Part shown: piece after piece, positions 5,299-64,000 of the stretch
How the letters are laid out: each line of letters begins with the position of its first letter
How positions within the stretch are numbered: position 1 is the stretch's first letter
Origin: a virus
IMG/VR virus record: IMGVR_UViG_3300021963_000040
Coordinates: 70,799-134,798 of that record
DNA length: 64,000 bases
Reading direction: 5' to 3' (one strand)
Position numbers and translations under genes: made by a program
The notes under the pieces: model-generated
What the model was told of the DNA's origin: nothing
Databases searched by the model: none
The model's input: only the letters and a program-made list of their open reading frames with translations

Positions 5299-7590
5299 AT
5301 GAGCAGAAATATCCAAGTACAAAAACGAGACGGGCGCAAAGAAGAATTAAACATTAATAAAATTCATAAAATGGTAGAAGAAGCTTGCCTAGGACTAGCA
5401 GGCGTTAACGTAAGTCAAATTGAAATGAATGCAGACTTACAATTCATAGATGGCATTTCAACATCAGACATCCAAGAAATCTTAATTCGTTCAGCTAATG
5501 ATCTAATTAGCTTAGAACACCCAAACTATCAATACGTTGCGGCACGTCTATTGTTATTTGGATTACGTAAAGAAGTATTTGGACAATTCCAACCACTACA
5601 CATCTTAGACTTAGTAAAGCGTAACATTGATAAAGGTATCTATGATCCCGAGCTAGTTACTTACTATTCTGATGACGAGTGGAATCAGATTAACGATATT
5701 GTCAATCACGATCGTGACTTTAACTTTACCTATGCTGGCATTCGCCAAGTTGTAGACAAGTACCTGGTGCAAGATCGTTCAACCGGTAAGGTATTCGAAA
5801 CACCACAATACATGTACATGCTAATTTCCGCAGTACTATTTTCTCGTTATCCTAAGGAGACGAGAATGTCTTATGTTAAGAGGTACTATGATGCAGTCAG
5901 CCAATATAAGATTAATATTCCTACTCCTGTCATGGCTGGTGTACGTACTCCTATGCGGCAGTTTGCTAGTTGTGTTTTGGTTGATGTGGATGATACCCTT
6001 GATAGTATTTTCACTAGCGATATGGCCATTGGTAAGTATGTGGCCCAACGAGCAGGCATCGGCATTAATGCAGGGCGCATCAGAGGAATCAATTCAAAGA
6101 TCAGAGGAGGCGAAGTAGCACACACTGGTGTAGTACCATTCCTTAAGAAGTTTGAATCCACTGTTCGTTGCTGTACACAAAATGGAGTCCGCGGCGGCTC
6201 GGCAACAGTTCACTTCCCAGTGTGGCACAAAGAGATCGAAGACATCCTAGTTCTTAAAAATAACAAAGGCACAGAAGACAACCGTGTACGCAAATTAGAT
6301 TACAGCATCCAACTAAGCAAATTATTTTATGAACGTGCGTTAAGTGGTGGCAATATTACATTATTCAGTCCACACGATGTTCCTGGATTATATGAAGCAT
6401 TTGGCGATAACGAATCATTTGACGCATTATATGTCAAATATGAAAATGATAATAAGATTCCTAAGAAGTCTATTTCAGCAATGGGGTTGATTCAAGACTT
6501 ACTAAAGGAACGTGCAGAAACAGGTCGTGTTTACATCATGAACATTGATCATGCCAACAGTCATAGTAGTTTCTTAGATGCAGTTAAAATGAGTAACCTC
6601 TGCCAAGAGATTACACTACCAACAGATCCTTTACAACACATCGACGGCAAAGGCGAAATTGCACTATGTATTCTAAGTGCTATCAACGTAGGTACACTAC
6701 GTAACCTAGATGAACTAACAAACTTATGTGATCTAGCTGTACGTGGTCTAGAAGAAATCATTGACTATCAGCGTTACCCAGTTATAGCCGCTGAGATTAG
6801 TACTAAAGCTCGTCGTAGCTTAGGTATTGGCTACATTGGCCTAGCACACTATCTAGCACGTAACAAAGTATTCTATGATGATGTAGAAGCCGCACGTTTA
6901 GTAAACCGTCTAACAGAAGCTTTCCAATATAACTTATTAAAAGCAAGTAACCAGTTAGCCAAGGAAAGAGGCGCATGTGAGTATTTCGATCGTACCAAAT
7001 ATTCACAAGGAATTCTGCCCATTGACACTTACAAGCGTGATATCGATGAATTCTTAGGTACAGAGTTGCAGTATGACTGGGAAAGTCTACGTGCTGAAAT
7101 TAAAGAGCACGGCCTACGTCATAGCACACTATCTGCACAGATGCCTAGCGAATCTAGCTCTGTTGCCAGCAACGAAACTAATGGTATCGAACCTCCACGT
7201 GACTTGTTATCAGTTAAGAAGTCAAAGAAAGGTACATTAAAACAAATCGTCCCGTCATATCAAAGTCTAAAAAACTACTATACTTTACTTTGGGATATGA
7301 AGGGCAACGAAGGATATGTTCGTATTGTAGCGGCCATGCAAAAATACTTTGATCAAGCCATTAGCGGAAATTGGAGTTATAATCCCTTACAGTTTGCCAA
7401 TAACGAAGTACCTCTAAGCGTAATGTTAAAAGATCTACTGACTACATACAAGTACGGATGGAAGACCAGTTATTATCAAAATACCTACGACATGAAGAGT
7501 GACGACGAAAGTCCACTACCCATATTAACAGAACAACCAGTAAAACAAGAAGAACAAGGCGAAGAAGTTTGCGACGCTTGCACCATTTAA
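5299..7590 (+). CDS. nrdA: Ribonucleoside-diphosphate reductase class Ia alpha subunit
   Basis: ATP cone (VQKRDG), PTPVMAG, SNLCQEI, C-terminal CDAC. Confidence 0.97.
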   Translation: MSRNIQVQKRDGRKEELNINKIHKMVEEACLGLAGVNVSQIEMNADLQFIDGISTSDIQEILIRSANDLISLEHPNYQYVAARLLLFGLRKEVFGQFQPLHILDLVKRNIDKGIYDPELVTYYSDDEWNQINDIVNHDRDFNFTYAGIRQVVDKYLVQDRSTGKVFETPQYMYMLISAVLFSRYPKETRMSYVKRYYDAVSQYKINIPTPVMAGVRTPMRQFASCVLVDVDDTLDSIFTSDMAIGKYVAQRAGIGINAGRIRGINSKIRGGEVAHTGVVPFLKKFESTVRCCTQNGVRGGSATVHFPVWHKEIEDILVLKNNKGTEDNRVRKLDYSIQLSKLFYERALSGGNITLFSPHDVPGLYEAFGDNESFDALYVKYENDNKIPKKSISAMGLIQDLLKERAETGRVYIMNIDHANSHSSFLDAVKMSNLCQEITLPTDPLQHIDGKGEIALCILSAINVGTLRNLDELTNLCDLAVRGLEEIIDYQRYPVIAAEISTKARRSLGIGYIGLAHYLARNKVFYDDVEAARLVNRLTEAFQYNLLKASNQLAKERGACEYFDRTKYSQGILPIDTYKRDIDEFLGTELQYDWESLRAEIKEHGLRHSTLSAQMPSESSSVASNETNGIEPPRDLLSVKKSKKGTLKQIVPSYQSLKNYYTLLWDMKGNEGYVRIVAAMQKYFDQAISGNWSYNPLQFANNEVPLSVMLKDLLTTYKYGWKTSYYQNTYDMKSDDESPLPILTEQPVKQEEQGEEVCDACTI

Positions 7591-7599
7591 GGAACATAT

Positions 7600-8691
7600 A
7601 TGACCGTTTTTAATAGAGACAAAGTTGACTTTACAAAAGAGCCTATGTTCTTTGGTGCTCAACAAAATACACAACGTTTTGATGTGTTTAAGTATCCTGT
7701 GTTTGATAAACTTACACAAGCACAATTAGGTTACTTTTGGCGACCAGAAGAAGTTAGCCTTCAAAAGGATCGCGCAGACTATCAACAATTCCGCCCAGAG
7801 CAAAAATTCATCTTTACTAGTAACCTAAAGTATCAAACTCTATTAGACTCGGTACAAGGCCGCGGAGTACTTGCGGCCTTTGGCCCTTATTGTAGTTTAC
7901 CTGAATTAGAAAGTTGCATGAACGCATGGCAGTTCTTTGAAAATATTCATAGTCGTTCATATACACACATCATTAAGAATGTTTATAGTAATCCGACAGA
8001 AGTATTTGATACTATTCTTGATGATGAACAAATTATTGCTCGTGCAAAGAGCGTAACAGTAGCATACGATGATTTTATTGATTATGCTAATCGTTATACA
8101 GTCACCGGCGAAGGAGACACGCGAACTCTAAAAAAGAAGTTATACATGGCCATGATTAGCGTGAACGCCCTTGAAGGGATTCGTTTCTTCGTTAGTTTCG
8201 CCTGTTCCTTCGCATTCGGTGAACTAAAGCTAATGGAAGGTTCTGCAAAGATCATTAGTTTAATTGCACGTGACGAAAGTCAACACCTTGCTATCAGTCA
8301 GCATATTATCAAGAACTGGCAGAAAGGTGACGATCCTGAAATGAGTAGTATCATTGAGGAATGCAAGGATGATGTTATCGAAGTTTACAAAAAAGTAGTC
8401 CAGGAAGAAAAAGAATGGGCCAACTATTTGTTTAAGGATGGTAGTATCATAGGTTTAAATGAACGTCTACTACATGAGTACGTAGAATACATTGCTAACA
8501 AAAGAGTACGAGCCATTGGCTTAGATAACTTGTTTACACGCCATGCAGAAAATCCACTGCCATGGACACAGCATTGGTTATCAAGCAAAGGCCTACAAGT
8601 AGCACCACAAGAGACAGAAGTAGAGAGTTACGTAGTGGGTGGTATTAAACAAGACGTTAACTTAAATGACTTCTCAGGATTTAAACTATAA
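7600..8691 (+). CDS. nrdB: Ribonucleoside-diphosphate reductase class Ia beta subunit
   Basis: FWRPEEV, ENIHSRSY, EGIRF, RDESQH, VAPQETE. Confidence 0.97.
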   Translation: MTVFNRDKVDFTKEPMFFGAQQNTQRFDVFKYPVFDKLTQAQLGYFWRPEEVSLQKDRADYQQFRPEQKFIFTSNLKYQTLLDSVQGRGVLAAFGPYCSLPELESCMNAWQFFENIHSRSYTHIIKNVYSNPTEVFDTILDDEQIIARAKSVTVAYDDFIDYANRYTVTGEGDTRTLKKKLYMAMISVNALEGIRFFVSFACSFAFGELKLMEGSAKIISLIARDESQHLAISQHIIKNWQKGDDPEMSSIIEECKDDVIEVYKKVVQEEKEWANYLFKDGSIIGLNERLLHEYVEYIANKRVRAIGLDNLFTRHAENPLPWTQHWLSSKGLQVAPQETEVESYVVGGIKQDVNLNDFSGFKL

Positions 8692-15539: not shown

Positions 15540-15605
15540 ATGGCATACAGAGCAAAAACTAAAACTCAAGCCGCAGTTCGTAGACAACTACGTAAGCGTA
15601 AATAA
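15540..15605 (+). CDS. 21 aa highly basic peptide (not in ORF track)
   Basis: ATG 2 nt after the previous stop; MAYRAKTKTQAAVRRQLRKRK. Confidence 0.45.
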   Translation: MAYRAKTKTQAAVRRQLRKRK

Positions 15606-15609
15606 TAAG

Positions 15610-15674
15610 AACAGCGTAAACTGTTATTAAGAAAAGTGTTCTGGACGCCGGTTCGACTCCGGCCAGGTCCACCA
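15610..15674 (+). ncRNA. ssrA: Two-piece tmRNA, acceptor piece (5' end approximate)
   Basis: T-arm GCCGG-TTCGACT-CCGGC, CAGGTCC-A-CCA end; CTGTTATT and GTTCTG pair with the coding piece. Confidence 0.88.
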
Positions 15675-15685
15675 TAAGGGGAACT

Positions 15686-15865
15686 ATGAATACTGCTCTA
15701 GTTTGGGTTTTGTCGATTACTGTTTTAGGACCTGTTCCTGAACATAAAATATACGCCAAATATAAAACCAAACAAGAGTGTGAGCAAGCGTTAGAGCAAT
15801 CTAAAGCAGAGTACAAGTTGCAGAAAAAGAATGTGTCTGCAACTTGTACTGTAACAATGAAATAG
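15686..15865 (+). CDS. 59 aa ORF inside the tmRNA intervening segment
   Basis: AAGGGGA SD; MNTALVWVLSITVLGPVPEHKIYAKYKTKQECEQAL...SATCTVTMK-TAG. Confidence 0.6.
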   Translation: MNTALVWVLSITVLGPVPEHKIYAKYKTKQECEQALEQSKAEYKLQKKNVSATCTVTMK

Positions 15866-15877
15866 TATCCTTATGAT

Positions 15878-16060
15878 GGGCCTGCACTTGGTTTCGACAG
15901 GGCAAAGAGTAAGAATAATGGCGCTCGGGAATGTGAAACCCGTAGGATTGGGGTAACCCGGTCGAAGAAGCAAAAACGTAACTGCAAACGACGAACAGTT
16001 CGCATTAGCGGCCTAAACTCCGCTTAGGGTAGGAAATACCTCGTAACAGAAACAACCAAT
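15878..16060 (+). ncRNA. ssrA: Two-piece tmRNA, coding piece, tag ANDEQFALAA (15984-16016)
   Basis: 5' GGGCCTG pairs with CAGGTCC including G3:U70; GGTTTCGAC D-loop motif; resume codon GCA. Confidence 0.9.
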
Positions 16061-16084
16061 GCCCGCTTCGGCGGGCATTTTTTT
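16058..16084 (+). terminator. Intrinsic terminator after tmRNA
   Basis: AATGCCCGC-TTCG-GCGGGCATT + T-run. Confidence 0.9.
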
Positions 16085-16208
16085 GGTTAATTTGTTCAAA
16101 AAACTGTTATTTTTCAATGGTTACTATTGTATAAATGTGGTTACGTACTATATACTATGTATTCGGTGTAACAGCCGGTATACAAATCTTAATATTAAGG
16201 AAAAATAA

Positions 16209-17181: not shown

Positions 17182-17257
17182 GCGTCTGTAGCTAAGTGGA
17201 ACAGCAGAAGCCTCTAAAACTTCAGAAGCGTGGGTTCGATTCCCACCAGACGCACCA
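17182..17257 (+). tRNA. tRNA with CUA anticodon (amber suppressor), Arg-like body
   Basis: Cloverleaf GCGTCTG/CAGACGC, anticodon arm GAAGC-CTCTAAA-ACTTC (C31-A39 mismatch), T-arm GTGGG-TTCGATT-CCCAC, encoded CCA. Confidence 0.82.
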
Positions 17258-41243: not shown

Positions 41244-41665
41244 GTGACTCTTCATCTTACCTAATTACTCCGCCGAGTATATTTTTACCGCGCCGCGGAT
41301 TAACCTTTTCTTTGATTACTAGAAACTCTAAATGGGTTGAAAACTTTATGGAAATGGCTGAGGATAAATTTCCCGGTACAACTGTAACGTTCTTTTCTTC
41401 TCACGAAGATGCCGATTTAGAAAAATACGTTTGGACATTCCAGCATGCCACAATAGCAGATTTTGTTATTGTAGACATGGATTCAGCATCAGATACTGAT
41501 ATTAACATTGCTCTTATTGTTAGTAAAGGTAAACGTGTTTGGTGGGAATTTTCAGACGAAGATAGTTATGTAACCCTACAAACTATTCTTAATGTTTCAG
41601 GTGCAGGTCTAGTAGACAGCACAGAAGAATTTTTTGAAATGATCAGTGACTTAGACAACGTATGA
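41240..41665 (+). CDS. Hypothetical protein
   Basis: Coupled ORF. Confidence 0.65.
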   Translation: MSDSSSYLITPPSIFLPRRGLTFSLITRNSKWVENFMEMAEDKFPGTTVTFFSSHEDADLEKYVWTFQHATIADFVIVDMDSASDTDINIALIVSKGKRVWWEFSDEDSYVTLQTILNVSGAGLVDSTEEFFEMISDLDNV

Positions 41666-42894
41666 GTAAAAAAGAAGATACTTTAAGCTGTAGCTTTTGC
41701 GCCAAAGACCGCGAACAAGTTAAAAAAATGGTTGCAGGCCAAGATGTTTATATTTGTGACGAATGTATCGAACTTTGTTATCAAATACTAAAAGATGACA
41801 AACACGAAGAAGCCAAAGAACAAGGGCAAGTTAGCACCCCAAGGCAAATGAAAGAATTCTTAGATCAGTATGTTATTGGTCAAGAGTATTCTAAGTTTGT
41901 GCTGGCTGTGGCTGTTTATAATCACTATAAACGCATCAACAACATTAACTCAACTACGGAAATCGACAAGAGCAATGTCCTGTTAATTGGTCCTACTGGA
42001 TCCGGTAAGACACACCTAGCACGTACTATTGCTCGTATGTTAAATGTTCCATTTGCTATTGCAGATGCCACAAGTCTAACAGAATCAGGATATGTAGGCG
42101 ATGATGTAGAGCACGTTATACATCGTTTGTTAACCGCGGCAGGTAACGACATAACCAAAGCAGAACAGGGTATTGTTTACATTGATGAAATTGATAAAAA
42201 GGGTAAAAAAGGAGAAAGCACTTCAATTACTCGTGACGTATCAGGCGAAGGTGTACAACAAGCTCTGCTCAAACTAATTGAAGGTACAGAATGCCGTGTA
42301 CCAACAGGCGGTGGCCGCAGACATCCCGGTCAAGATGGCACTATTGTAAACACTAAAAATATTCTATTCATCTTAGGCGGAGCGTTTGTAGGCTTAGATG
42401 ATATTATTAATCGTCGTATTAACAAAGACAGTACTACTATTGGATTCAATACACGACTAGATACCAAGAAAGAATCTAAACTGAATCAAGTTGAACCGGA
42501 AGATATTGTTAAGTTTGGATTAATCCCAGAACTTGTGGGACGTATTCCGGTTGTTGCTACACTAACAGAACTAACAACAGACGAATTAGTTCGTACGTTA
42601 AGAGAACCAAAACACAGCATAGTAAGCCAGTTTGAAGAACTATTTAAATTAGATGGTGTAGATTTAGAAATTACCGACGACGCCGCACTAGCCATGGCCC
42701 AAGAGTGCATAGATAAAAAATTAGGGGCTCGAGGATTACGTGCTGTTATTGAAAGAACATTGCTTAAAACGCAATTTGAGTTACCAGAACTACGCGAACA
42801 AGGAGTTGTGCGTGTTACAGTAACTCCGGAAAGTGTTGCAGGTGCAACACCGATTTATCTTTACAAAGGAGAAGAGCAGTCTAACCATGTTTAA
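41662..42894 (+). CDS. clpX: ATP-dependent Clp protease ATP-binding subunit ClpX
   Basis: CSFC..ICDEC zinc finger, [31 protein letters not shown] loop, GARGLR. Confidence 0.96.
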
Positions 42895-44590: not shown

Positions 44591-45715
44591 ATGCGTATCC
44601 TAGAAGATATCAAGTTAGATTTCCGCGACGTTTTAATCTTACCAAAACGTAGCACACTAGCAAGCCGCCGCGAAGTTGATCTTCACAGAAATTTTGTATT
44701 CCGAAACAGCGGAGAAGGCTATCAAGGTATACCAATCATGGCCGCCAATATGGATGGCGTAGGTACATTCGAAATGGCAGAAGCTCTTGCAGAACAAGGT
44801 ATGTTTACTTGTATACGCAAGCAATATACAGTTCAAGAATGGACTGATTGGTACAATTATATTAAAGAAAATAACGCCAACTACCGGGCTATAATTTCCG
44901 ACAATATTGCTATTAGTACAGGAACTAGTGAATCAGACTTTGAAAAATTAAAAGCAATTACAGATAGTATCCCTGGCATTCGATTTATCTGCATCGACAT
45001 CGCCAATGGATATTCGGAACATTTTGGCGATTATGTAGCAAAAGTACGCAGTAAGTTCTTTAATAAAGTTATCATTGCCGGTAATGTAGTAACCGGAGAT
45101 ATGACACAAGAACTAATTTTACGTGGTGCGGATATTGTTAAAGTGGGGATCGGGCCTGGCTCTGTTTGTACTACTCGTGTGCAAACTGGAGTAGGCTATC
45201 CACAACTTAGTGCTATTATTGAATGCGCCGATGCCGCTCACGGGCTTAACGGACAAATCATTGCTGATGGCGGCTGTACTTGTCCCGGTGATGTTGCCAA
45301 GGCTTTTGGCGCCGGCGCAGACTTTGTAATGCTAGGCGGTATGCTAGCAGGACACGTTGAAGGTGGCGGCGAAATTATTCAAAAATTATACGAAACAAAT
45401 GAATTTGGACCAATGGATCAAGGTGACCATGCACCTTCAAAGAAAATTGAAGTTAAAAAGTTTGTGCAGTTTTATGGCATGAGTTCAGATACCGCTATGG
45501 GCAAGCACTCGGGCGGAGTAGCAGAATATCGTAGCAGTGAGGGTCGTACGGTCACAGTACCATATCGTGGTGCAGTAAAGTCTACTGTACTAGACTTTCT
45601 AGGCGGTCTGCGTAGTACCTGCACTTATGTAGGAGCCCCTACCCTAAAACAACTGCCAAAATGTACTACTTTTGTACGGGTAAATCGGCAGATCAATGAC
45701 GTATTTCTTGGTTGA
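44591..45715 (+). CDS. guaC: GMP reductase
   Basis: [34 protein letters not shown]; no CBS domains. Confidence 0.93.
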
Positions 45716-56487: not shown

Positions 56488-58575
56488 ATGATGAAAGAAA
56501 AACTACTCAACTTAGCAAAAAAGTTCTTTACGGGCAATAGTGTGGTACTACTAATCTTAGCGGCAATGCTGATGATTCGTGTAGTAGATCCATGGCCTAC
56601 TCAAGTTTTAAGACTTAAGAGCTTTGACTATATGCAACGAAGTGCAGAAGTCGTTAATGCCGAAGATGTTATTATTGTTGACATCGATGAAAAGGCTGTA
56701 GAAAAATACGGACAATGGCCATTTGATCGTAGAGATCTTGCCGGCATTATTGACAAACTACGTGCTAACGGCGCAGGTATTATTGTTATCCCTGCATTGT
56801 TCAGTGAACCCGATCGTGCCAAAGGCGATGAAGAGTTTGCTAAAAAATTAAATCGTAACGGTGTTGTTATTGCTCAACAGGTTACTACTCAAAATAAAAA
56901 GCCCGATGCAGTTCGTAGGGGTGTAGCTAAAGTAGGCGAAGATCCTACTCCATTCCTATATTCTTGGCCGGGTGCATTAAAGCCACTGGACAAGTTAGCT
57001 AATAGCGCAGACGGTGTGGGTGTAATTGCATCGGCCCCAGAACCTGACGGTGTTGTTCGTCGTATGCCAATGTTAGTTAATATTCAAAATGACATTTATC
57101 CATCATTGGTTCTAGAAGCATTGCGTGTTAGTACAGGTGATCCTAGCTATCAAGTTAAGTCAAATGTAAACGGAGTCGAAGCAGTTCGTGTACCTCAGTA
57201 TGGTGCTGTTCGCACAGATGAAACAGGTTCAGTTTGGCTAAGTTGGAATTATAATACTCCCCGTGTAAGCATCACAGGCGACCTAAAGAAAGTTAAAGAT
57301 AAAGTTGTAGTGTTAGGTCTAACAATCGAGGGCGTAGGCGGCATCATTTCTACTCCAGTTGGTAGTCGTTGGGCACATGATATGCAGGCCAATGCTATTC
57401 AAACGGTAGTAGACAAAACGGTCATTCAACGTTTTGATTGGGCTAGCGTGATCGAACTAGCAACTATCGTTATTGTTGGTTTGGCATTTGTTTATTTTAT
57501 GCCCAAGATTCCTTTAATGTATACTGTACCAGTAATTATTGTATATGTACTAGCAGAGTACAATATAACCACATGGTTGTTTACGGCACAACGACAGCTA
57601 TGGGATTGGTCGTGGCCTGTGCTGACTATATTCCTAATGTGGTCTTATACCGTGTTTAATAAGTTTGCCAAAGAAAACGAATTGAAGAAACAGATTAAGA
57701 AACAGTTCGAGCATTACCTAAGTCCAGAGTTTATCAAAGAGCTACAAAAGAATCCTGGTATGCTTAAACTAGGCGGCGATACTCGCAAGCTATCTATTTT
57801 GTTTAGTGACATTCGTGGATTTACAACTATCAGCGAATACTATAAGACAAATCCACAAGGTCTTACTACGTTGATTAATCGTTACATGACACCTATGACT
57901 GCAACAATTATGGAGCGTAAAGGTACCATCGACAAGTACATCGGTGATGCTATTATGGCATTCTGGGGTGCTCCGTTAGATGTGCCGGATCAAGCAGACT
58001 TGGCTGTTGAGGCAAGTATGGACATGGTAAAACGACTAGATGCGTTAAATGAACAATTACGTAAAGAAGGTATTCCTGAACTAGGTATGGGTGTAGGTAT
58101 TAACACCGGTGAAGTTGTTGTAGGTAACATGGGTAGTGACCAACGCTTTGATTATACCTGTCTAGGTGATGCTGTTAATTTGTCTAGTCGACTCGAAGGA
58201 CAAAGCAAGCCATATGGCGTACAATTAGTAGTAGGACAAGAAACAGAAAAGCTATTAAGCAGACTGTGGGCTATTCTTGAACTAGACTGTATTGCTGTTA
58301 AAGGCAAGGCTGAAGGTGTTAATATCTTTACAGTTATAGGTAAGGTTATGGACATTAACGGTTTTGATCGAGATAAAGAAACTCATGACGAAATGTTAAA
58401 AGCATATCGTAAACAGCAATGGGCCAAGGCAATCAAACTATGCAAATCGTCAGAAGGCAAGTTCGATGGCAAGATGGACAAGTATTATCATGCTATGTTA
58501 GAACGTATCGAAGAATTGAAGACTCACGATCTTCCTGCTGATTGGGATGGCGTGTATAGAGCCACAAGCAAGTAA
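56488..58575 (+). CDS. CHASE2-domain class III adenylate/guanylate cyclase
   Basis: IVDIDE..GQWP, DGVVRR, 3 TMs, FSDIRGFT, DKYIGDAIMAFW, GDAVNLSSRLEG. Confidence 0.95.
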   Translation: MMKEKLLNLAKKFFTGNSVVLLILAAMLMIRVVDPWPTQVLRLKSFDYMQRSAEVVNAEDVIIVDIDEKAVEKYGQWPFDRRDLAGIIDKLRANGAGIIVIPALFSEPDRAKGDEEFAKKLNRNGVVIAQQVTTQNKKPDAVRRGVAKVGEDPTPFLYSWPGALKPLDKLANSADGVGVIASAPEPDGVVRRMPMLVNIQNDIYPSLVLEALRVSTGDPSYQVKSNVNGVEAVRVPQYGAVRTDETGSVWLSWNYNTPRVSITGDLKKVKDKVVVLGLTIEGVGGIISTPVGSRWAHDMQANAIQTVVDKTVIQRFDWASVIELATIVIVGLAFVYFMPKIPLMYTVPVIIVYVLAEYNITTWLFTAQRQLWDWSWPVLTIFLMWSYTVFNKFAKENELKKQIKKQFEHYLSPEFIKELQKNPGMLKLGGDTRKLSILFSDIRGFTTISEYYKTNPQGLTTLINRYMTPMTATIMERKGTIDKYIGDAIMAFWGAPLDVPDQADLAVEASMDMVKRLDALNEQLRKEGIPELGMGVGINTGEVVVGNMGSDQRFDYTCLGDAVNLSSRLEGQSKPYGVQLVVGQETEKLLSRLWAILELDCIAVKGKAEGVNIFTVIGKVMDINGFDRDKETHDEMLKAYRKQQWAKAIKLCKSSEGKFDGKMDKYYHAMLERIEELKTHDLPADWDGVYRATSK

Positions 58576-59417
58576 TGAAAGCACTTATAGCGTTGCTACT
58601 AGCCCTAGCAACGGCTTGCTCATTTGCCAAGCCGAATAAACAACAAGCACCATTGGCTCAAAGTTGGATGATATGGGACGTTAATAACAATCGTTCTATA
58701 TCATCTGACAATACTGATCAAGTTAGAAGCATTGCTAGCATTACTAAGTTAATGACGGCAATGGTTACTATAGATAACGGTCGCCTAGATGAAATGGTTC
58801 AGATTATTAGATATAAAGGTTACAGTACTCATATTCCTTCGTCTGTGAATATGATGTCTAGACTAGAGCTAGTTAACCTTTCTATGATTACCAGCGACAA
58901 CTTAGCCGCACATCTTTTAGCAATGTCACATAAAGATGGATTTGATGCTTTTGTTGCACAAATGAATAAGAAAGCAGAATCACTGGGCATGACAAATACC
59001 AAGTATGTTGAAGCAACAGGACTACTGCCTGGTAACGTAAGTACAGTATTAGATCTTAACAAACAGGTTAAGGCCGCAATGGACTATAATATAATCACAG
59101 AAGCAAGTAAAACCGGGGCCAGCGAGATTAGAGCTAAGAAAAAAATTTTGTTTTTTAGAAATACTAATCCTTTAGTAGGTAGTCCTAGAAAAATATTAGT
59201 AAGTAAAACAGGTTGGATTAATGCCAGCGGAGGATGTTTAGTTATGGCTGTAGAGACATCGCATGGTCTGCGTACAGTTATTATTCTTGGAAGTAAAAGC
59301 ACAAGGACTAGGATTGCAGATGCATTGTTTATTATGGATAAACTTGATGCTACTACCCCTAGTCCTAGTTTTGTTGATAGAATTCTAGTGCCTATAGATT
59401 CTATAATCTACGATTAA
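58575..59417 (+). CDS. Peptidase S11 D-Ala-D-Ala carboxy/endopeptidase (PBP7-like)
   Basis: SIASITKLM (SxxK), SDN, KTG. Confidence 0.9.
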   Translation: MKALIALLLALATACSFAKPNKQQAPLAQSWMIWDVNNNRSISSDNTDQVRSIASITKLMTAMVTIDNGRLDEMVQIIRYKGYSTHIPSSVNMMSRLELVNLSMITSDNLAAHLLAMSHKDGFDAFVAQMNKKAESLGMTNTKYVEATGLLPGNVSTVLDLNKQVKAAMDYNIITEASKTGASEIRAKKKILFFRNTNPLVGSPRKILVSKTGWINASGGCLVMAVETSHGLRTVIILGSKSTRTRIADALFIMDKLDATTPSPSFVDRILVPIDSIIYD

Positions 59418-60229
59418 TCAGCTTTGCCGCACTTAGCACGTTTAGCATTTGTCAACGCACCGTAGTCAACTGGCCATTCTTGTCCTGGTGCCAGTTCTCT
59501 AGCATTAGCAGGGAAAGCAAATCTAACACCTGCATACTCTTGAATTTGTGCTACCGGAGCACGGAACTTTGTTAAATCGTTACCTAAATTAACATATGGC
59601 TTGGTATGCGGGAATTGCCATCCGGCAACTGCACCGGTTTGTTGATCAATAACAATTTTATAATAACCATGTGGAACTACAACTCCACTGCCTATCTTTT
59701 CATTTCCAGCGCCATAGAATGCCCCCACGTAGATCGTAAACGGACGATTCTGCTGTACCGCCCACCCACGCACTGATGTTTCTAGCAATTTCCATATTCC
59801 ACGGTTTAAACTTCCGTGCTGTGGATACATATTTGTCATTAAGAAACTCTCATACTCCACGATGGCTGACCATGAAAGATCGCCATCGGGAGCGGCATGT
59901 CCTTTGTCGTAACCTGTGCCAGCGTAATCACTTGGTGTCGGTCCTCCCGGTACTGACTGATCCGCAACGAATGCGTTCGTACGTGGAAAGCATCCTAAAG
60001 CATTTTGTGGTAATAGTGTGTATGCAACATAAACAGGAATTTTAGCAGGAGCATCATATGCTACTAGATATGCCTCTCTGCAAATAGGTTGTGCTGTACG
60101 AGCTGTTTGGGCGAATCCGTACGGGCTATGCACAGCACATGATTGTACAGGTAACGGAGCTCTTTGTTCCCATGCAAAGGCTGTTATACTAACAACTGCC
60201 AGTAATGCAGTTAATAAATGTTTTTTCAT
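59414..60229 (-). CDS. DNA/RNA non-specific endonuclease (secreted)
   Basis: YDKGHAAP, TNMYPQ...NRGIW..LE. Confidence 0.92.
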   Translation of the reverse strand: MKKHLLTALLAVVSITAFAWEQRAPLPVQSCAVHSPYGFAQTARTAQPICREAYLVAYDAPAKIPVYVAYTLLPQNALGCFPRTNAFVADQSVPGGPTPSDYAGTGYDKGHAAPDGDLSWSAIVEYESFLMTNMYPQHGSLNRGIWKLLETSVRGWAVQQNRPFTIYVGAFYGAGNEKIGSGVVVPHGYYKIVIDQQTGAVAGWQFPHTKPYVNLGNDLTKFRAPVAQIQEYAGVRFAFPANARELAPGQEWPVDYGALTNAKRAKCGKAD

Positions 60230-60338
60230 ACTACTCCTTAATTTAAAATAAGCATTAATATCAGAGCTATACTGATACCAACTATCAACTGACGGAGAGA
60301 TGATTTAAAACAAACCTTTTTTCTATCGCATAAAATTA

Positions 60339-60653
60339 TCAAGATGACCCACCACTTGCTTCTTTATCGTCTTCTGACAAACTTTTTTTATTAGATATTT
60401 GTCTCTCTGCCTCTATCTCTTTGCCTCTAAGCATTAAAACTATATTTACTTTTTGATTCAAACGAATTAAGTCGTTATCTAACATTCTAATGCGATCAAT
60501 TAGGGCAATGAGCGTAGTGTTAGCGTTACCCATAACAGGTTTGATTTCCTTAGTTACCCAAGTCCATACATAGTACACAAAGTACCCCATACCCCCGGCC
60601 GCCACAATAGGAAAGCCATACTTGTTAACTAGATCTACTATCTCATTACCCAT
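60339..60653 (-). CDS. Small membrane/coiled-coil protein (paralog of 61804-62082)
   Basis: GFPIVAAGGMGYFV. Confidence 0.75.
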   Translation of the reverse strand: MGNEIVDLVNKYGFPIVAAGGMGYFVYYVWTWVTKEIKPVMGNANTTLIALIDRIRMLDNDLIRLNQKVNIVLMLRGKEIEAERQISNKKSLSEDDKEASGGSS

Positions 60654-60712
60654 ATTATATCCTTACTTCTTAGGGTGTTTGCCACCGCATACAGGGCAAC
60701 CCTCGTCGTTAT

Positions 60713-61279
60713 TTAAAACCATAATAATACTCCTTGAGCACTTAATGCCAACCCTACACCTGCTACAACAAAACTGCCCCAGAACATTGGCATACTAACT
60801 GCTAGAATACTTGCAGATAGAACAACAATGGCTAACTGATATGCTGTTGATGCGTATCCAATCCATGGACTAGATTTCTTTGCTAGCTCACGATCTGCTT
60901 CCATCTTGCGAGCATTGACGGCAATTTCTTTTTTGTCGGCATCCATGCGCTCTGCTTCTGCCTTAAACTCTGCCTTAAGTTTAGGATCGCTGGTTGTTTT
61001 ACTAGCAATTTCATAACTAACTAAACGATTATTCTTTGCTTGATATTGTGCCCATGCGTTATTGGCGCCTAATGTATTATTAAGAACTGTAGAACTTAAC
61101 TTGCCACCGTACCAGCTATTAACTGCCAAGAATAATGCAAATACGGAAATGACCATACCTGCTTTGTCTTTGATCTTTGCTTCACGCTCGCTACGTGAGC
61201 CTACCGGTGCTTTTGGTGCGTCCGGATCCTTTGGTTGTTTGTTGATTAAATTTAGTATTGATTCTACTAGACTTGCCAT
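60713..61279 (-). CDS. DUF4337-like membrane protein
   Basis: WAQYQAK; QLAIVVLSASIL. Confidence 0.7.
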   Translation of the reverse strand: MASLVESILNLINKQPKDPDAPKAPVGSRSEREAKIKDKAGMVISVFALFLAVNSWYGGKLSSTVLNNTLGANNAWAQYQAKNNRLVSYEIASKTTSDPKLKAEFKAEAERMDADKKEIAVNARKMEADRELAKKSSPWIGYASTAYQLAIVVLSASILAVSMPMFWGSFVVAGVGLALSAQGVLLWF

Positions 61280-61289
61280 ATATTTTTCC

Positions 61290-61451
61290 TTATAAACATA
61301 GACCTACTAAAAACCCAAAGAACAAACCCCAAGCAAATGCTTTTGCCATATCATTGTCGTGCCATAGCGGTTGATTCTTGAGATACTCTTTAGTATGGTC
61401 TGGTAAACTATTGTACCACTTATCCCACTTACTTGGTTCAAACAGCTTCAT
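61290..61451 (-). CDS. 53 aa membrane protein (not in ORF track)
   Basis: MKLFEPSKWDKWYNSLP...AFAWGLFFGFLVGLCL. Confidence 0.55.
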   Translation of the reverse strand: MKLFEPSKWDKWYNSLPDHTKEYLKNQPLWHDNDMAKAFAWGLFFGFLVGLCL

Positions 61452-61632
61452 TGCCATATCCCCTTACAAATTTTTCTATGGGTTCTACTTTTTGTAGACC
61501 ATATGTATTACCCATCTTTACTATCTTAAACAAGTCGCCTTCTTGCCATTGCAAGTTTTTTTCTATGTTTAATTCTTCGTCAAATTTAATTCCGTTTGGG
61601 CTTAAATCCCAGTGGTAGTCTAAATATAGCAT
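61438..61632 (-). CDS. Hypothetical protein
   Basis: 64 aa coupled ORF. Confidence 0.65.
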   Translation of the reverse strand: MLYLDYHWDLSPNGIKFDEELNIEKNLQWQEGDLFKIVKMGNTYGLQKVEPIEKFVRGYGNEAV

Positions 61633-61639
61633 AATGTTC

Positions 61640-61804
61640 TTAACCGTGTAATATATAAACGATAGTTACTATTGTACCTAATATCATCGCAACTACAAGG
61701 ACTGATTTCCAGTCCATATCATCTAATTTCATTTTGAACCAGGGACTCGAAACTTCAACTGATCTTTCAAGTAATTGTTCTTGTTGTGTGTTAGGATCCA
61801 TCAT
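61640..61804 (-). CDS. 54 aa membrane protein (not in ORF track)
   Basis: TGATG coupling; C-terminal TM. Confidence 0.5.
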   Translation of the reverse strand: MMDPNTQQEQLLERSVEVSSPWFKMKLDDMDWKSVLVVAMILGTIVTIVYILHG

Positions 61805-62082
61805 CAGTCTCTCCTTGCGTCTGATTGCTCGGAACGAGCAATTCTATCAATATCGGGTTTAACTCCTAAAGCATTTGATACCAATGTGTCGATGCGAATT
61901 ACATCGTGATTCATTGTTGCTACACGTTTATCTAATGCTTGAATGATGCCGCTCATTCCGTTTACGCCCGATGTTACACCGGCTAGAATGAATTTTAGTG
62001 TTAAGAATACAAAGTACCCTGCGGCCATAGCGGCCGCAATTGGAAACCCAAGCTCCGCTACTAATTTAAAGAATTCCCCCAT
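61804..62082 (-). CDS. Small membrane/coiled-coil protein (paralog of 60339-60653)
   Basis: GFPIAAAMAAGYFV. Confidence 0.75.
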   Translation of the reverse strand: MGEFFKLVAELGFPIAAAMAAGYFVFLTLKFILAGVTSGVNGMSGIIQALDKRVATMNHDVIRIDTLVSNALGVKPDIDRIARSEQSDARRD

Positions 62083-62252: not shown

Positions 62253-62414
62253 ATGAAAACTTCAACTTCATTATCGTTAAGATCAGTCAAGCATATAGCC
62301 CGTAATGGCGGCTTTATGCCCACCTATTGGTCTGCGAAAAATGGAACAAGTAATCTGTCTATTGATCGCACACCAGAGCAGATCGTAGGGTCTTCGGAGA
62401 CCGTGTATAGTTAA
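62253..62414 (+). CDS. Putative leader peptide (53 aa)
   Basis: ATG just after the promoter; ends before the attenuator-like terminator. Confidence 0.45.
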   Translation: MKTSTSLSLRSVKHIARNGGFMPTYWSAKNGTSNLSIDRTPEQIVGSSETVYS

Positions 62415-62468
62415 CAACAACTAAACCAAATTCTAAAGACCCTAGGACTAAAAACCCTAGGGTTTTTT
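62386..62468 (+). terminator. Attenuator: terminator with alternative antiterminator
   Basis: GACCCTAGG/CCTAGGGTT + T-run; upstream TAGGGTCTT pairs perfectly with AAGACCCTA. Confidence 0.6.
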
Positions 62469-62486
62469 GCTTTGTAAGTGGTCAAA

Positions 62487-62711
62487 AGTGTGTATAGGCA
62501 ACGCGAGCCTGTCCTGCACTTAAAACATGGGACTATTAATGAGGGCGGCCTACCGGATGATAAGTTCCTGGCGATAACAGGAATGCGTAAAATGGTAGCG
62601 TATTAAAGTACATTCACTGGTACCATCGGGGGACCAGTCCTGTTAAACCGTGCTAGCCGCTGGGATATTGACAACGAGTGTACTTCAATACACACTTTCG
62701 AAAGAGAGTGT
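62487..62711 (+). ncRNA. Unknown structured RNA region including a stem-bracketed element at 62600-62691
   Basis: Several hairpins; 16-bp closing stem; GAAA-loop hairpin after it. Confidence 0.5.
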
Positions 62712-62721
62712 AAATATCAAG

Positions 62722-63633
62722 ATGTACTACGATGCCAGTTCTTTTCGTTTCACTAAACGAATAAATTCTAATCTAGAAATAAACTTGTTCAAATGGTATG
62801 AACTAGGTGTGCTGGGTCTAGGCCCACAATCTGCTCCTTACTTAAACTTTGACCGTTACTTTACAGAAGCTCCTTGGAGCCAAATGGATCTAGAGCTAAA
62901 GAATATATTTGACAGTAGACGGGGCAAAGTTAACATGATGCCGGGACATGCCTGCATGATACCTGAACACGTTAACAACAAGAAATGGCTGAATCATTAC
63001 ATCTATCATGCAGAAAAGTATCTCCCTGAACAACTGTTAGCTACAGTCACAGACAAGGGAGTACTACATGATTGGATCTATAAAAATAGTCTTGCAGTTC
63101 CGGACTGGTCTGACAGATTACTAATTAGTATGAATGCAACAAATCCTACTGACTGGTATCTTAAGCATGTCAATGGCAAGATTCACGAACTATTCGCAGA
63201 ACAGGCTCCTGTGTTTGCTAATTGGTTACGCACTAGCGTACAGCATGTCTTTAAAGACATTGGTCGTGTTATAGTGTTTCAGAATGTCAAGGACAATCCT
63301 GTAGGCATTCATAGAGATCATCACGTATTGTCTAAGGGACTAAGACTGCATAGTGTAAACTTTCAGTTTGGTCCTATTAACAGACCCTTCTTTGTCTATG
63401 ACGAAGTAACAAAAGAAAGACATTACGTATCTAACATGAGAGCCTACAGTTTTAACGACTTAGACCTTCATGGTGTAGACGCAGAAGACCAGTATCTGTA
63501 TACAGTACGCATAGACGGCGTGTTTACAGATCAGGTCTGCGATGATCTAGGACTAGCAGGCGGCTACACATGGGGGCCGCTGAGCCCTAGCTACAAGAAG
63601 CTAGACACTATAAAGATCTATAATCCCGAGTAA
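62722..63633 (+). CDS. Putative Fe(II)/2OG-type dioxygenase (DSBH)
   Basis: IHRD...FNDLDLHGV...VRIDG; TAAATA just upstream of ATG 62722. Confidence 0.55.
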   Translation: MYYDASSFRFTKRINSNLEINLFKWYELGVLGLGPQSAPYLNFDRYFTEAPWSQMDLELKNIFDSRRGKVNMMPGHACMIPEHVNNKKWLNHYIYHAEKYLPEQLLATVTDKGVLHDWIYKNSLAVPDWSDRLLISMNATNPTDWYLKHVNGKIHELFAEQAPVFANWLRTSVQHVFKDIGRVIVFQNVKDNPVGIHRDHHVLSKGLRLHSVNFQFGPINRPFFVYDEVTKERHYVSNMRAYSFNDLDLHGVDAEDQYLYTVRIDGVFTDQVCDDLGLAGGYTWGPLSPSYKKLDTIKIYNPE

Positions 63634-63658
63634 TTTACTCAACTATTAAAAATGGTAG

Positions 63659-63730
63659 TTGACAAGAAAATTGAGTTAAGCTACAATAGAGGCATACGTT
63701 AACAAAACAAGTTAACATTGTTCTTTAAAA
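63659..63730 (+). promoter_or_regulatory. sigma70 promoter plus boxB-like hairpin and boxA antitermination motif
   Basis: TTGACA-17-TACAAT; GTTAAC-7-GTTAAC; TGTTCTTTAAAA. Confidence 0.6.
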
Positions 63731-63760
63731 AGTTGTAGCTTTTGTAGCACTAAAGTGCTA

Positions 63761-63987
63761 CTATATTAAAGCATTCTACAGGGTTACCTAATCCGTTAGG
63801 GGACTGGTTGGGATAACGGGGCGGCGGCCTCCGGTCCGGCAACCACTCATGAAGCGTATGAACGATAGCGTAAAGCTATGCAGTTGAACGTGACGGGTAG
63901 TTAGGCTGTAATGACAGCATACAACGTAGGCTCGCTACCTACGAAAAGGACGTATGCACGTTCCCTTAGCAGAATGTTTTAATATAG
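63761..63987 (+). ncRNA. Unknown structured RNA closed by a 17-bp stem
   Basis: CTATATTAAAGCATTCT / AGAATGTTTTAATATAG; GC-rich interior with many hairpins; no ORF. Confidence 0.6.
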
Positions 63988-64000
63988 TTTGGATCCTGTT

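Follow-up and report, generated by a model that had tools for sequence, protein, structure and literature searches.

Two structured RNA cassettes with a shared closing stem in a jumbo phage fragment, and a possible circular RNA from one of them

Introduction

Small circular RNAs that are encoded in DNA are well documented in archaea and eukaryotes; those of bacteria are few and poorly understood. In archaea, circular forms of pre-ribosomal RNA, transfer RNA (tRNA) introns and C/D box small RNAs are excised at a bulge-helix-bulge in long stems, a motif of two 3-nucleotide (nt) bulges on opposite strands with a 4-base-pair (bp) helix between them, and are joined by RtcB; the engineered Tornado design is likewise said to use a stem that holds the RNA ends for RtcB. 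A second relevant arrangement is found in ribosomal RNA (rRNA) operons and in the early transcripts of phage T7, where conserved RNase III stems surround different RNAs or messages as a common processing signal, and where the enzyme makes a staggered 2-nt cut within the duplex, leaving products with stubs of both strands. The present analysis concerns two structured RNAs, RNA1 (62600-62691) and RNA2 (63760-63988), each closed by a long AU-rich stem with a common signature. Both lie in the window, that is, the 64,000-nt stretch of DNA analysed here, which forms the last 64 kb (positions 70,799 to 134,798) of the 134,798-bp IMG/VR record IMGVR_UViG_3300021963_000040; the record ends 12 nt past RNA2.

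As in the archaeal system, a flanking long stem in this phage DNA unites the two ends of a stable RNA, and the excised inside appears circular. Unlike in archaea, the arms of RNA1 and RNA2 are continuously paired with no bulge-helix-bulge (at the RNA2 junction the 5' strand has a 3-nt linker and the 3' strand continues into the next helix), the predicted host is bacterial, and splicing endonuclease (PF01974) and RtcB (PF01139) gave 0 matches in the 134.8-kb record, which holds about 38% of the genome according to CheckV and in which positive controls were detected. The likeness to the rRNA and T7 stems lies in conserved long stems that flank different RNAs, and the difference in an RNA2 species that lacks the 3' arm and whose topology is closed. 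Stripped of its arms, the inside of RNA2 is a discrete, very abundant RNA species in one public metatranscriptome. It is likely that the two loci are processed non-coding RNA (ncRNA) cassettes with a functional handle, and the chances seem evenly balanced that the inside of RNA2 is excised under the guidance of the stem and joined end to end into a circle. Literature searches on circular RNAs in bacteria and phages yielded no phage-encoded small circular RNA.

Stems, folds and interiors

The stem of RNA1 comprises 16 positions, one of them an A.C mismatch (62605/62686) and another a U.G pair, and its pair probabilities are 0.82-1.0 at the 15 positions other than the mismatch; the stem of RNA2 comprises 18 bp with one G.U pair, contains the 13-nt signature and has pair probabilities of 0.75-1.0 (Table 1). 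Compared with the RNA2 stem, that of RNA1 has 2 additional base pairs, present in both arms, which argues that the arms are related and have changed together. On the plus strand, the predicted folds reach -32.7 kcal/mol for RNA1 (z -3.44) and -83.0 kcal/mol for RNA2 (z -4.59), and in each case 0 of 200 shuffled sequences folded as well; since the minus strands fold about equally well (z -3.08 and -4.98, respectively), folding by itself cannot assign the strand.

Table 1. Positions in the window of the two RNAs, their parts and the features beside them.
Feature	Position	Strand	Remark
Block upstream of RNA1	62513-62599	+	About 80% alike in a related strain, where a different cargo follows
RNA1 5' arm	62600-62615	+	G followed by TATTAAAGTACATTC
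RNA1 interior, 60 nt	62616-62675	+	Predicted fold with two hairpins and a three-way junction; no Rfam match
RNA1 3' arm	62676-62691	+	GAGTGTACTTCAATA followed by C
ORF303, 303 aa, between the cassettes	62722-63633	+	Predicted fold like a double-stranded beta-helix or 2OG-Fe(II) oxygenase
RNA2 promoter, sigma-70-type	63659-63687	+	Promoter scan; TTGACA, 17 nt, TACAAT (11/12)
RNA2 5' arm of the 18-bp closing stem	63760-63777	+	Shared signature at 63764-63776
RNA2 stem-enclosed segment, 193 nt	63778-63970	+	Proposed excised, end-joined RNA
RNA2 part matched by the circular metatranscriptome contig	63780-63966	+	
RNA2 core	63844-63917	+	No listed difference from an 89% identical RNA allele (contig difference tables)
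RNA2 3' arm	63971-63988	+	Shared signature at 63972-63984

The preliminary description of this DNA, made from the letters alone, had proposed two structured RNAs with a shared stem signature, and the sequence is as it described. The pattern of the 5' arm occurs twice in the 134,798-bp record, and a 5' arm followed by a 3' arm at most 400 nt away also occurs twice; 60 first-order Markov genomes contained on average 0.07 patterns of the 5' arm and 0 arm pairs, a comparison for which the pattern was defined post hoc from the two observed copies. A relaxed scan of the record, in which at most 3 substitutions were allowed and a partner arm was required, added two sites that lie within reading frames and are both attributed to chance, and the record holds no paralogues of RNA1, RNA2 or their leaders elsewhere.

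Inside RNA2, the six hairpins listed in the preliminary description are all complementary, but only four are favoured in the predicted ensemble, namely GGUUG/CAACC (pair probabilities 0.94-0.98), AUAGC/GCUAU (0.71-0.80), GCUGU/ACAGC (0.76-0.84) and GUAGG/CCUAC (0.93). The remaining two, CCUAA/UUAGG (0.03-0.04) and GAACGUG/CACGUUC (0.01-0.03), are outcompeted by an 8-bp helix between 63795-63802 and 63963-63970 (0.58-0.76). Pairing between the two ends of the contig-matched part of RNA2 as a 4-bp helix, AGGG/CCCU, was also considered and ruled out by its pair probability of 0.02-0.05.

The interiors of RNA1 and RNA2 belong to no known RNA family, which bears out what had been expected of an Rfam check. 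No family was matched by either RNA at E up to 10 in searches of 1.9-kb, 241-nt and 256-nt stretches, where only noise was returned (mir-589, BTnc049 and snR63), and ARAGORN found no tRNA-like gene at the cassettes.

An abundant RNA2 species without arms

Part of the stretch is covered by 24 public runs from 15 studies, including 2 RNA libraries, and contigs were compared from 4 of these 24, that is, from both RNA runs (X12 and X23) and from two DNA runs (X2 and X4). In X12, a river/lake RNA data set, seven contigs lie on the stretch. One of them, 222 nt long and with a word depth of 249.5, reads 63861-63966, then six letters, then 63780-63890, and the contigs on ORF303, the open reading frame (ORF) between the cassettes, and on a small upstream ORF have depths of 2.4-3.6 and 0-1 differences from the window. 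Judged by contig depth, a poor gauge of expression, the RNA2 inside exceeds every messenger RNA (mRNA) contig in X12 about 100-fold; it is unjoined to its flanks, and no X12 contig lies on the RNA2 promoter, the leader or either arm.

The joint of the 222-nt contig runs from 63966 to 63780, going back 187 positions, and its first 30 letters are its last 30. The words of the Logan assembly are, as we take it, 31 letters long, so that k-1 is 30; contig ends that are identical over 30 letters therefore describe a closed path of 192 nt, either a circle or a tandem array. The length of this path follows from 187 - 1 + 6 = 192, and the stem-enclosed segment of 193 nt, minus the one deleted letter (63804), also gives 192, so that the closed path is exactly as long as the segment enclosed by the stem. 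The six linking letters can take the place of 63967-63970 plus 63778-63779 without insertion or deletion, and the letters of the 3' arm (GAATG...) are absent from the contig under every reading of them. An endless reading frame on the circle, of the kind known as DRT2/Neo-like, was considered and ruled out, with 2-6 stops in all six frames of 63780-63966 and no reverse transcriptase in the record.

The preliminary description had envisaged a stable-RNA operon from which small RNAs are released at a site for an RNase III-like enzyme or a phage nuclease. The release of a small RNA is upheld to the extent that the inside of RNA2 is discrete and abundant, but its topology is circular or tandem, not simply linear. 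A cut within the stem in the manner of RNase III is contradicted by a species that ends at the inner end of the stem with no letters of the 3' arm, where stubs would be expected, and no nuclease was identified. The single operon does not hold either, because RNA2 has its own promoter, followed by a leader of about 65 nt, and because a protein gene and a terminator-like hairpin lie between the parts.

Alleles of RNA2 and of the handle

The X12 contig represents an 89% identical allele of RNA2, with 21 positions that differ and one deletion; 12 of the substitutions are listed individually. Two of these, 63820 G>A and 63829 C>T, affect bases that pair with each other in the minimum-free-energy structure and form one compensatory pair. 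At 63843 and 63918, C>T opposite G changes G-C into G.U on the plus strand, and on the minus strand the same changes break the pairs. Six of the 12 listed substitutions and the deletion fall at unpaired positions, and the partners of 63927 and 63930 lie in a zone near the end of a contig piece where at least 5 differences are unlisted. No difference is listed in 63844-63917, with at most 2 unlisted ones possible within 63861-63890. For a comparison of one allele with a structure derived from the window copy, this pattern is the one that would be expected of a functional plus-strand RNA with a conserved core.

The DNA runs give a view of the handle in other strains. An 811-nt contig of X2 follows the window over 62513-62608 with 8 substitutions and 11 gaps, the last eight letters of this match being the start of the 5' arm; beyond 62608 come about 180 nt unlike the window, whose first letters read as the remainder of an arm, followed by TACAGG as in RNA2 and by a new interior (consensus of 2 records, agreement 0.68). 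The claim that the stem is a conserved handle around different cargoes is thereby strengthened, with two interiors in the record and a third after the same 5' arm in X2. Two more loose ends of X2 flank 62637-62674. The 5' one carries C62611>T, and the 3' one carries G62680>A together with C62686>T, which lies opposite A62605 and would mend the A.C mismatch; pairing of the arms would thus have been kept by compensatory change if both loose ends come from one molecule. In X4, a contig departs from the window after 63648, just 5' of the RNA2 promoter, a hint that this strain may lack the RNA2 cassette or carry a different one.

Proposed processing and competing explanations

In the proposed pathway, the AU-rich closing stem of 16-18 bp would clamp each cargo, bring its two ends together and mark the site of excision. 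The precursor of RNA2 would start about 65 nt upstream, from a sigma-70 promoter of its own; both strands would be cleaved where the stem reaches its inner end, and the two ends would be joined, giving a circle of about 193 nt that resists exonucleases and builds up to levels far above those of the phage mRNA. Cutting and joining would presumably fall to host or phage enzymes, namely a nuclease together with a ligase of the RtcB or Rnl type. The circle would be covalent, the cuts would lie flush with the stem, and RNA1 and the allelic cargoes would share the same fate; as to function, one may guess that the cargo is a stable RNA acting as decoy or sponge towards a host factor. It is conceivable, albeit quite improbable, that the conserved stem and the invariant core of 74 nt together constitute a new self-processing RNA, either a ribozyme class or a ligase recruiter, with flush self-excision and closure of the circle, in which case the phage would possess a natural, modular system for expressing circular RNA that possibly persists or spreads as RNA. 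If the circle is real, it would imply a new way of excising and joining RNA in the bacterial world that matches no known signal (ribozyme, bulge-helix-bulge or intron), a new class of very abundant phage ncRNA and a portable stem handle as a candidate tool for making circular RNAs in bacteria; moreover, some of the ribozyme-less "circular RNAs" of metatranscriptomes would be phage gene products and not RNA replicons.

Several observations weigh against this pathway. A single contig of a single run underlies the circle, and strand, ends and covalent closure are not visible in contigs. Another possible reading of the six linking letters takes five of them from the inner end of the 5' arm and adds one, and since they are unlike the window, the exact junction is set by length only. 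No X12 contig covers RNA1, the other RNA run (X23) contributes nothing but an ORF303 contig, and neither X2 nor X4 covers 63700-64000, although gaps in X23, X2 and X4 were not taken as evidence. The ORF303 contigs of X12 are identical to the window but the RNA2 contig is only 89% identical, which means that the DNA template of this allele is not among the contigs; that template could be a tandem array or a locus elsewhere. The X2 loose ends with covariation of the arms are not assignable to one molecule. No further member of the cassette family turned up in IMG/VR, in the GTDB species genomes or in three cultured jumbo phages, and the record, at about 38% of the genome, contains no RtcB, Rnl (PF09414), RNase III, splicing endonuclease, TROVE or reverse transcriptase.

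RNase III classically acts on long perfect stems, and the stems here have the roughly two turns of uninterrupted double-stranded RNA that the enzyme is taken to require (18 bp in RNA2; 16 positions with one mismatch in RNA1). The cassettes might accordingly yield linear stable small RNAs by RNase III-like processing of the stem, with the circular contig explained by a tandem DNA copy that another strain carries or by an effect of assembly or library, as a single contig of unseen DNA origin and a depth that measures expression poorly would allow. We regard this explanation as unlikely: the abundant species has no letters of the 3' arm, where a staggered cut would leave stubs of both arms, and its ends are identical over exactly 30 letters, which is a closed path and not a linear RNA. 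The arms, at 13-18 nt, are shorter than the 31-letter words and so cannot fold the assembly graph back on itself. The fragment carries no RNase III gene, and a host RNase III is possible. A different role for the arms would be in DNA, as terminal inverted repeats or recombination sites of TA-flanked cassettes resembling miniature inverted-repeat transposable elements (MITEs), with transcription secondary. TA indeed adjoins the inverted repeat at both ends of both elements (as a duplication or as part of the repeat), cassette content differs by strain at one locus, RNA2 is missing from the X2 and X4 contigs, and a 348-kb relative (L024) has no cassette beside its homologue of ORF303. Yet the interiors are unrelated, unlike MITE copies, of which just 2 would be present in 134.8 kb, and no transposase is seen beside the cassettes. 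RNA2 has a promoter of its own, its arm-less inside is an abundant RNA, and its inner helices keep their pairing through G.U pairs and a compensatory change that fit one strand, all of which makes a purely DNA-level role improbable.

A closing stem like P1 around a multi-helix junction is the usual layout of an aptamer, and RNA1 ends 31 nt before the ATG of ORF303 (62722), with the record stopping after RNA2. The two RNAs might then be cis-acting leaders, similar to riboswitches or attenuators, of which RNA1 controls ORF303 and RNA2 some gene further downstream, outside the record. Such a role appears very doubtful, as the ORF303 homologue of L024 has no leader, unrelated insides with one stem sequence are unexpected for aptamers, Rfam returned no riboswitch match, and the RNA2 inside lies far above the mRNA depth in X12, unjoined to flanks. 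The circular or multimeric topology, very high RNA depth, unseen allele DNA and small size would also suit a small RNA replicon, similar to a viroid or satellite, that is present in the phage as DNA copies between the arms of a launch stem. A preprint reports that metatranscriptomes contain a large unexplored set of predicted circular RNAs without known ribozymes, and it names DNA-encoded sequences as a source of error for such sets (bioRxiv 10.1101/2022.07.19.500677). A replicon is nevertheless highly improbable here, because a DNA copy with its own promoter accounts for the RNA without replication, no known ribozyme is present, and the RNA is predicted to fold into a branched structure whose 18-bp clamp is encoded in DNA.

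Comparison with other described RNAs

Ribozyme-flanked circular RNAs, such as viroid-like RNAs, retrozymes and Tornado constructs, resemble RNA2 in being small, highly structured and abundant with a circular path. They differ in their ribozymes, as searches at E up to 10 of the cassettes and their flanks (the 241-nt, 256-nt and 1.9-kb stretches) matched no hammerhead, twister, hairpin, hepatitis delta virus (HDV)-like, pistol or hatchet motif; a self-cleaving ribozyme spanning the RNA2 junction could escape them. The X12 contig is circular or multimeric with regard to topology only, not to covalent closure.

Circular small RNAs with other origins are exemplified by the archaeal circular omega RNAs (PMC12558985). 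For bacteria, DucS is described as a chromosomal non-coding RNA whose circular form was recognized via permuted reads and depends on 3'-end sequences found in its linear forms (PMC10504365); by comparison, RNA2 is phage-borne and has a shared clamp stem, and the arm-less circular path is its only form in the contigs. Circularly permuted group II introns in bacteria also make circular exons (PMC8637638); they need several hundred nucleotides of intron halves on both sides, in contrast to a leader of about 65 nt and no intron match at RNA2. Group I introns differ as well, in that RF00028 goes unmatched both across the whole record (E up to 1) and in the local searches (E up to 10), and the cassette flanks pair together and are not exons of a gene. 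The Y RNA/YrlA family is set apart by the lack of an Rfam match, of a tRNA-like gene at the cassettes and of TROVE in the record. The msr-msd region of retrons shares the inverted repeats, but the gene downstream has an oxygenase-like predicted fold and the record holds no RVT_1.

Searches for further members

The searches for further members depended on exact words or close similarity, and some of the collections omit near relatives by design. In IMG/VR, the pattern of the 5' arm was found at 21 loci with 0 convincing partner arms, the best of them (L021) being the start of a reading frame; the arm plus TACAGG was found at 14 loci and 15 sites, where the best partner paired at 13 of 15 positions with G.U allowed and 0 were convincing; and three patterns from the interiors gave 0 matches. 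Among the GTDB species genomes, a single 20-mer match lies in a GC-rich reading frame of a metagenome-assembled genome of Acidimicrobiaceae, when about 1 match is estimated to be expected by chance. With 1 mismatch allowed, the arm pattern occurs at the rate of the reversed control in the three cultured jumbo phages (9 against 9 in the PA5oct-like phage, 13 against 9 in Atu_ph07 and 6 against 3 in XbC2), none of which has RNA2-like DNA, and blastn of 62400-64000 against GenBank phages returned no match.

Surroundings of the cassettes

Upstream of RNA1, a promoter may be formed by TAAAAT at 62581-62586 with a weak -35 element, which was read by eye and is unlisted in the promoter scan. A terminator-like hairpin read from the sequence precedes RNA1 at 62440-62470. 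The region around it (62425-62473) has several loose ends on both sides with many different flanks in runs X12, X2 and X4, which makes it look like a repeated or shared terminator module in the phage population. A perfect 11-nt complementarity between 62485-62495 and 62688-62698 could form an outer helix around the upstream block and RNA1; it is probably due to chance, because its blastn E-value is 3 and its 5' half lies within 45 nt that are absent from the X2 variant.

The protein encoded by ORF303 has no Pfam family and no sequence match in PDB. Its 11 homologues, one of them weak, share the invariant residues H197-x-D199...H250. The structural model has a mean predicted local distance difference test score (pLDDT) of 79, and its best fold matches, which are weak (template modelling (TM) score 0.2-0.37), are 2-oxoglutarate (2OG)-Fe(II) oxygenases and cupins; by its modelled fold, the protein is probably a 2OG-Fe(II) oxygenase. 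Searches of IMG/VR with ORF303 and with a 992-aa protein returned no match, and tblastn of the 992-aa protein against GenBank phages found none either; an alignment search with ORF303 located one metagenome locus, L024. At this locus, the immediate neighbours of the homologue (47% identity) are a CHASE2-cyclase gene on one side and another ORF on the other, and neither a cassette nor an inverted repeat of this kind accompanies it. In the window, the matching cyclase gene (56488-58575) is about 4 kb from ORF303, and RNA1 lies in that gap. The absence of a cassette from the L024 locus, taken with this gap, suggests that the cassettes sit in variable DNA independent of ORF303, which is probably outside the RNA system.

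The cyclase gene itself, a fusion of a CHASE2 sensor with a class III adenylate/guanylate cyclase (2869-4971 in L024), is a conserved phage-borne signalling gene. The block at 58575-62082, absent from L024, encodes a D-Ala-D-Ala carboxypeptidase (S11), an Endonuclease_NS protein (a non-specific DNA/RNA endonuclease, on the minus strand), a DUF4337 protein and several small minus-strand ORFs.

Phage and host

The record derives from a jumbo myophage, with a tail sheath, tail tube, large terminase and helicase matched in PHROGs. The nearest cultured relatives by tail sheath are the PA5oct-like Pseudomonas phages (45.9% identity), Agrobacterium phage Atu_ph07 and XbC2. Near-consensus sigma-70 promoters number 17 in the record, all 17 on the plus strand, and the host is judged to be bacterial because of these promoters, a permuted transfer-messenger RNA (tmRNA), two tRNAs and a gene for a peptidoglycan enzyme in the record. 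At the gathering score, Rfam finds the tmRNA and 2 tRNAs in the whole window and nothing else.

The tmRNA is permuted into two pieces with the tag ANDEQFALAA and, together with a tRNA with the anticodon CUA, occupies window positions 15582-16107 and 17182-17257. The CUA tRNA is an amber suppressor, labelled tRNA-Pyl by ARAGORN, and TAG is the stop codon of 4 of the 103 ORFs of at least 150 aa in the record. Host-like auxiliary genes at 5299-8691, 41662-42894 and 44591-45715 encode the large and small subunits of a class I ribonucleotide reductase, a ClpX-like ATPase and a member of the inosine monophosphate (IMP) dehydrogenase/guanosine monophosphate (GMP) reductase family.

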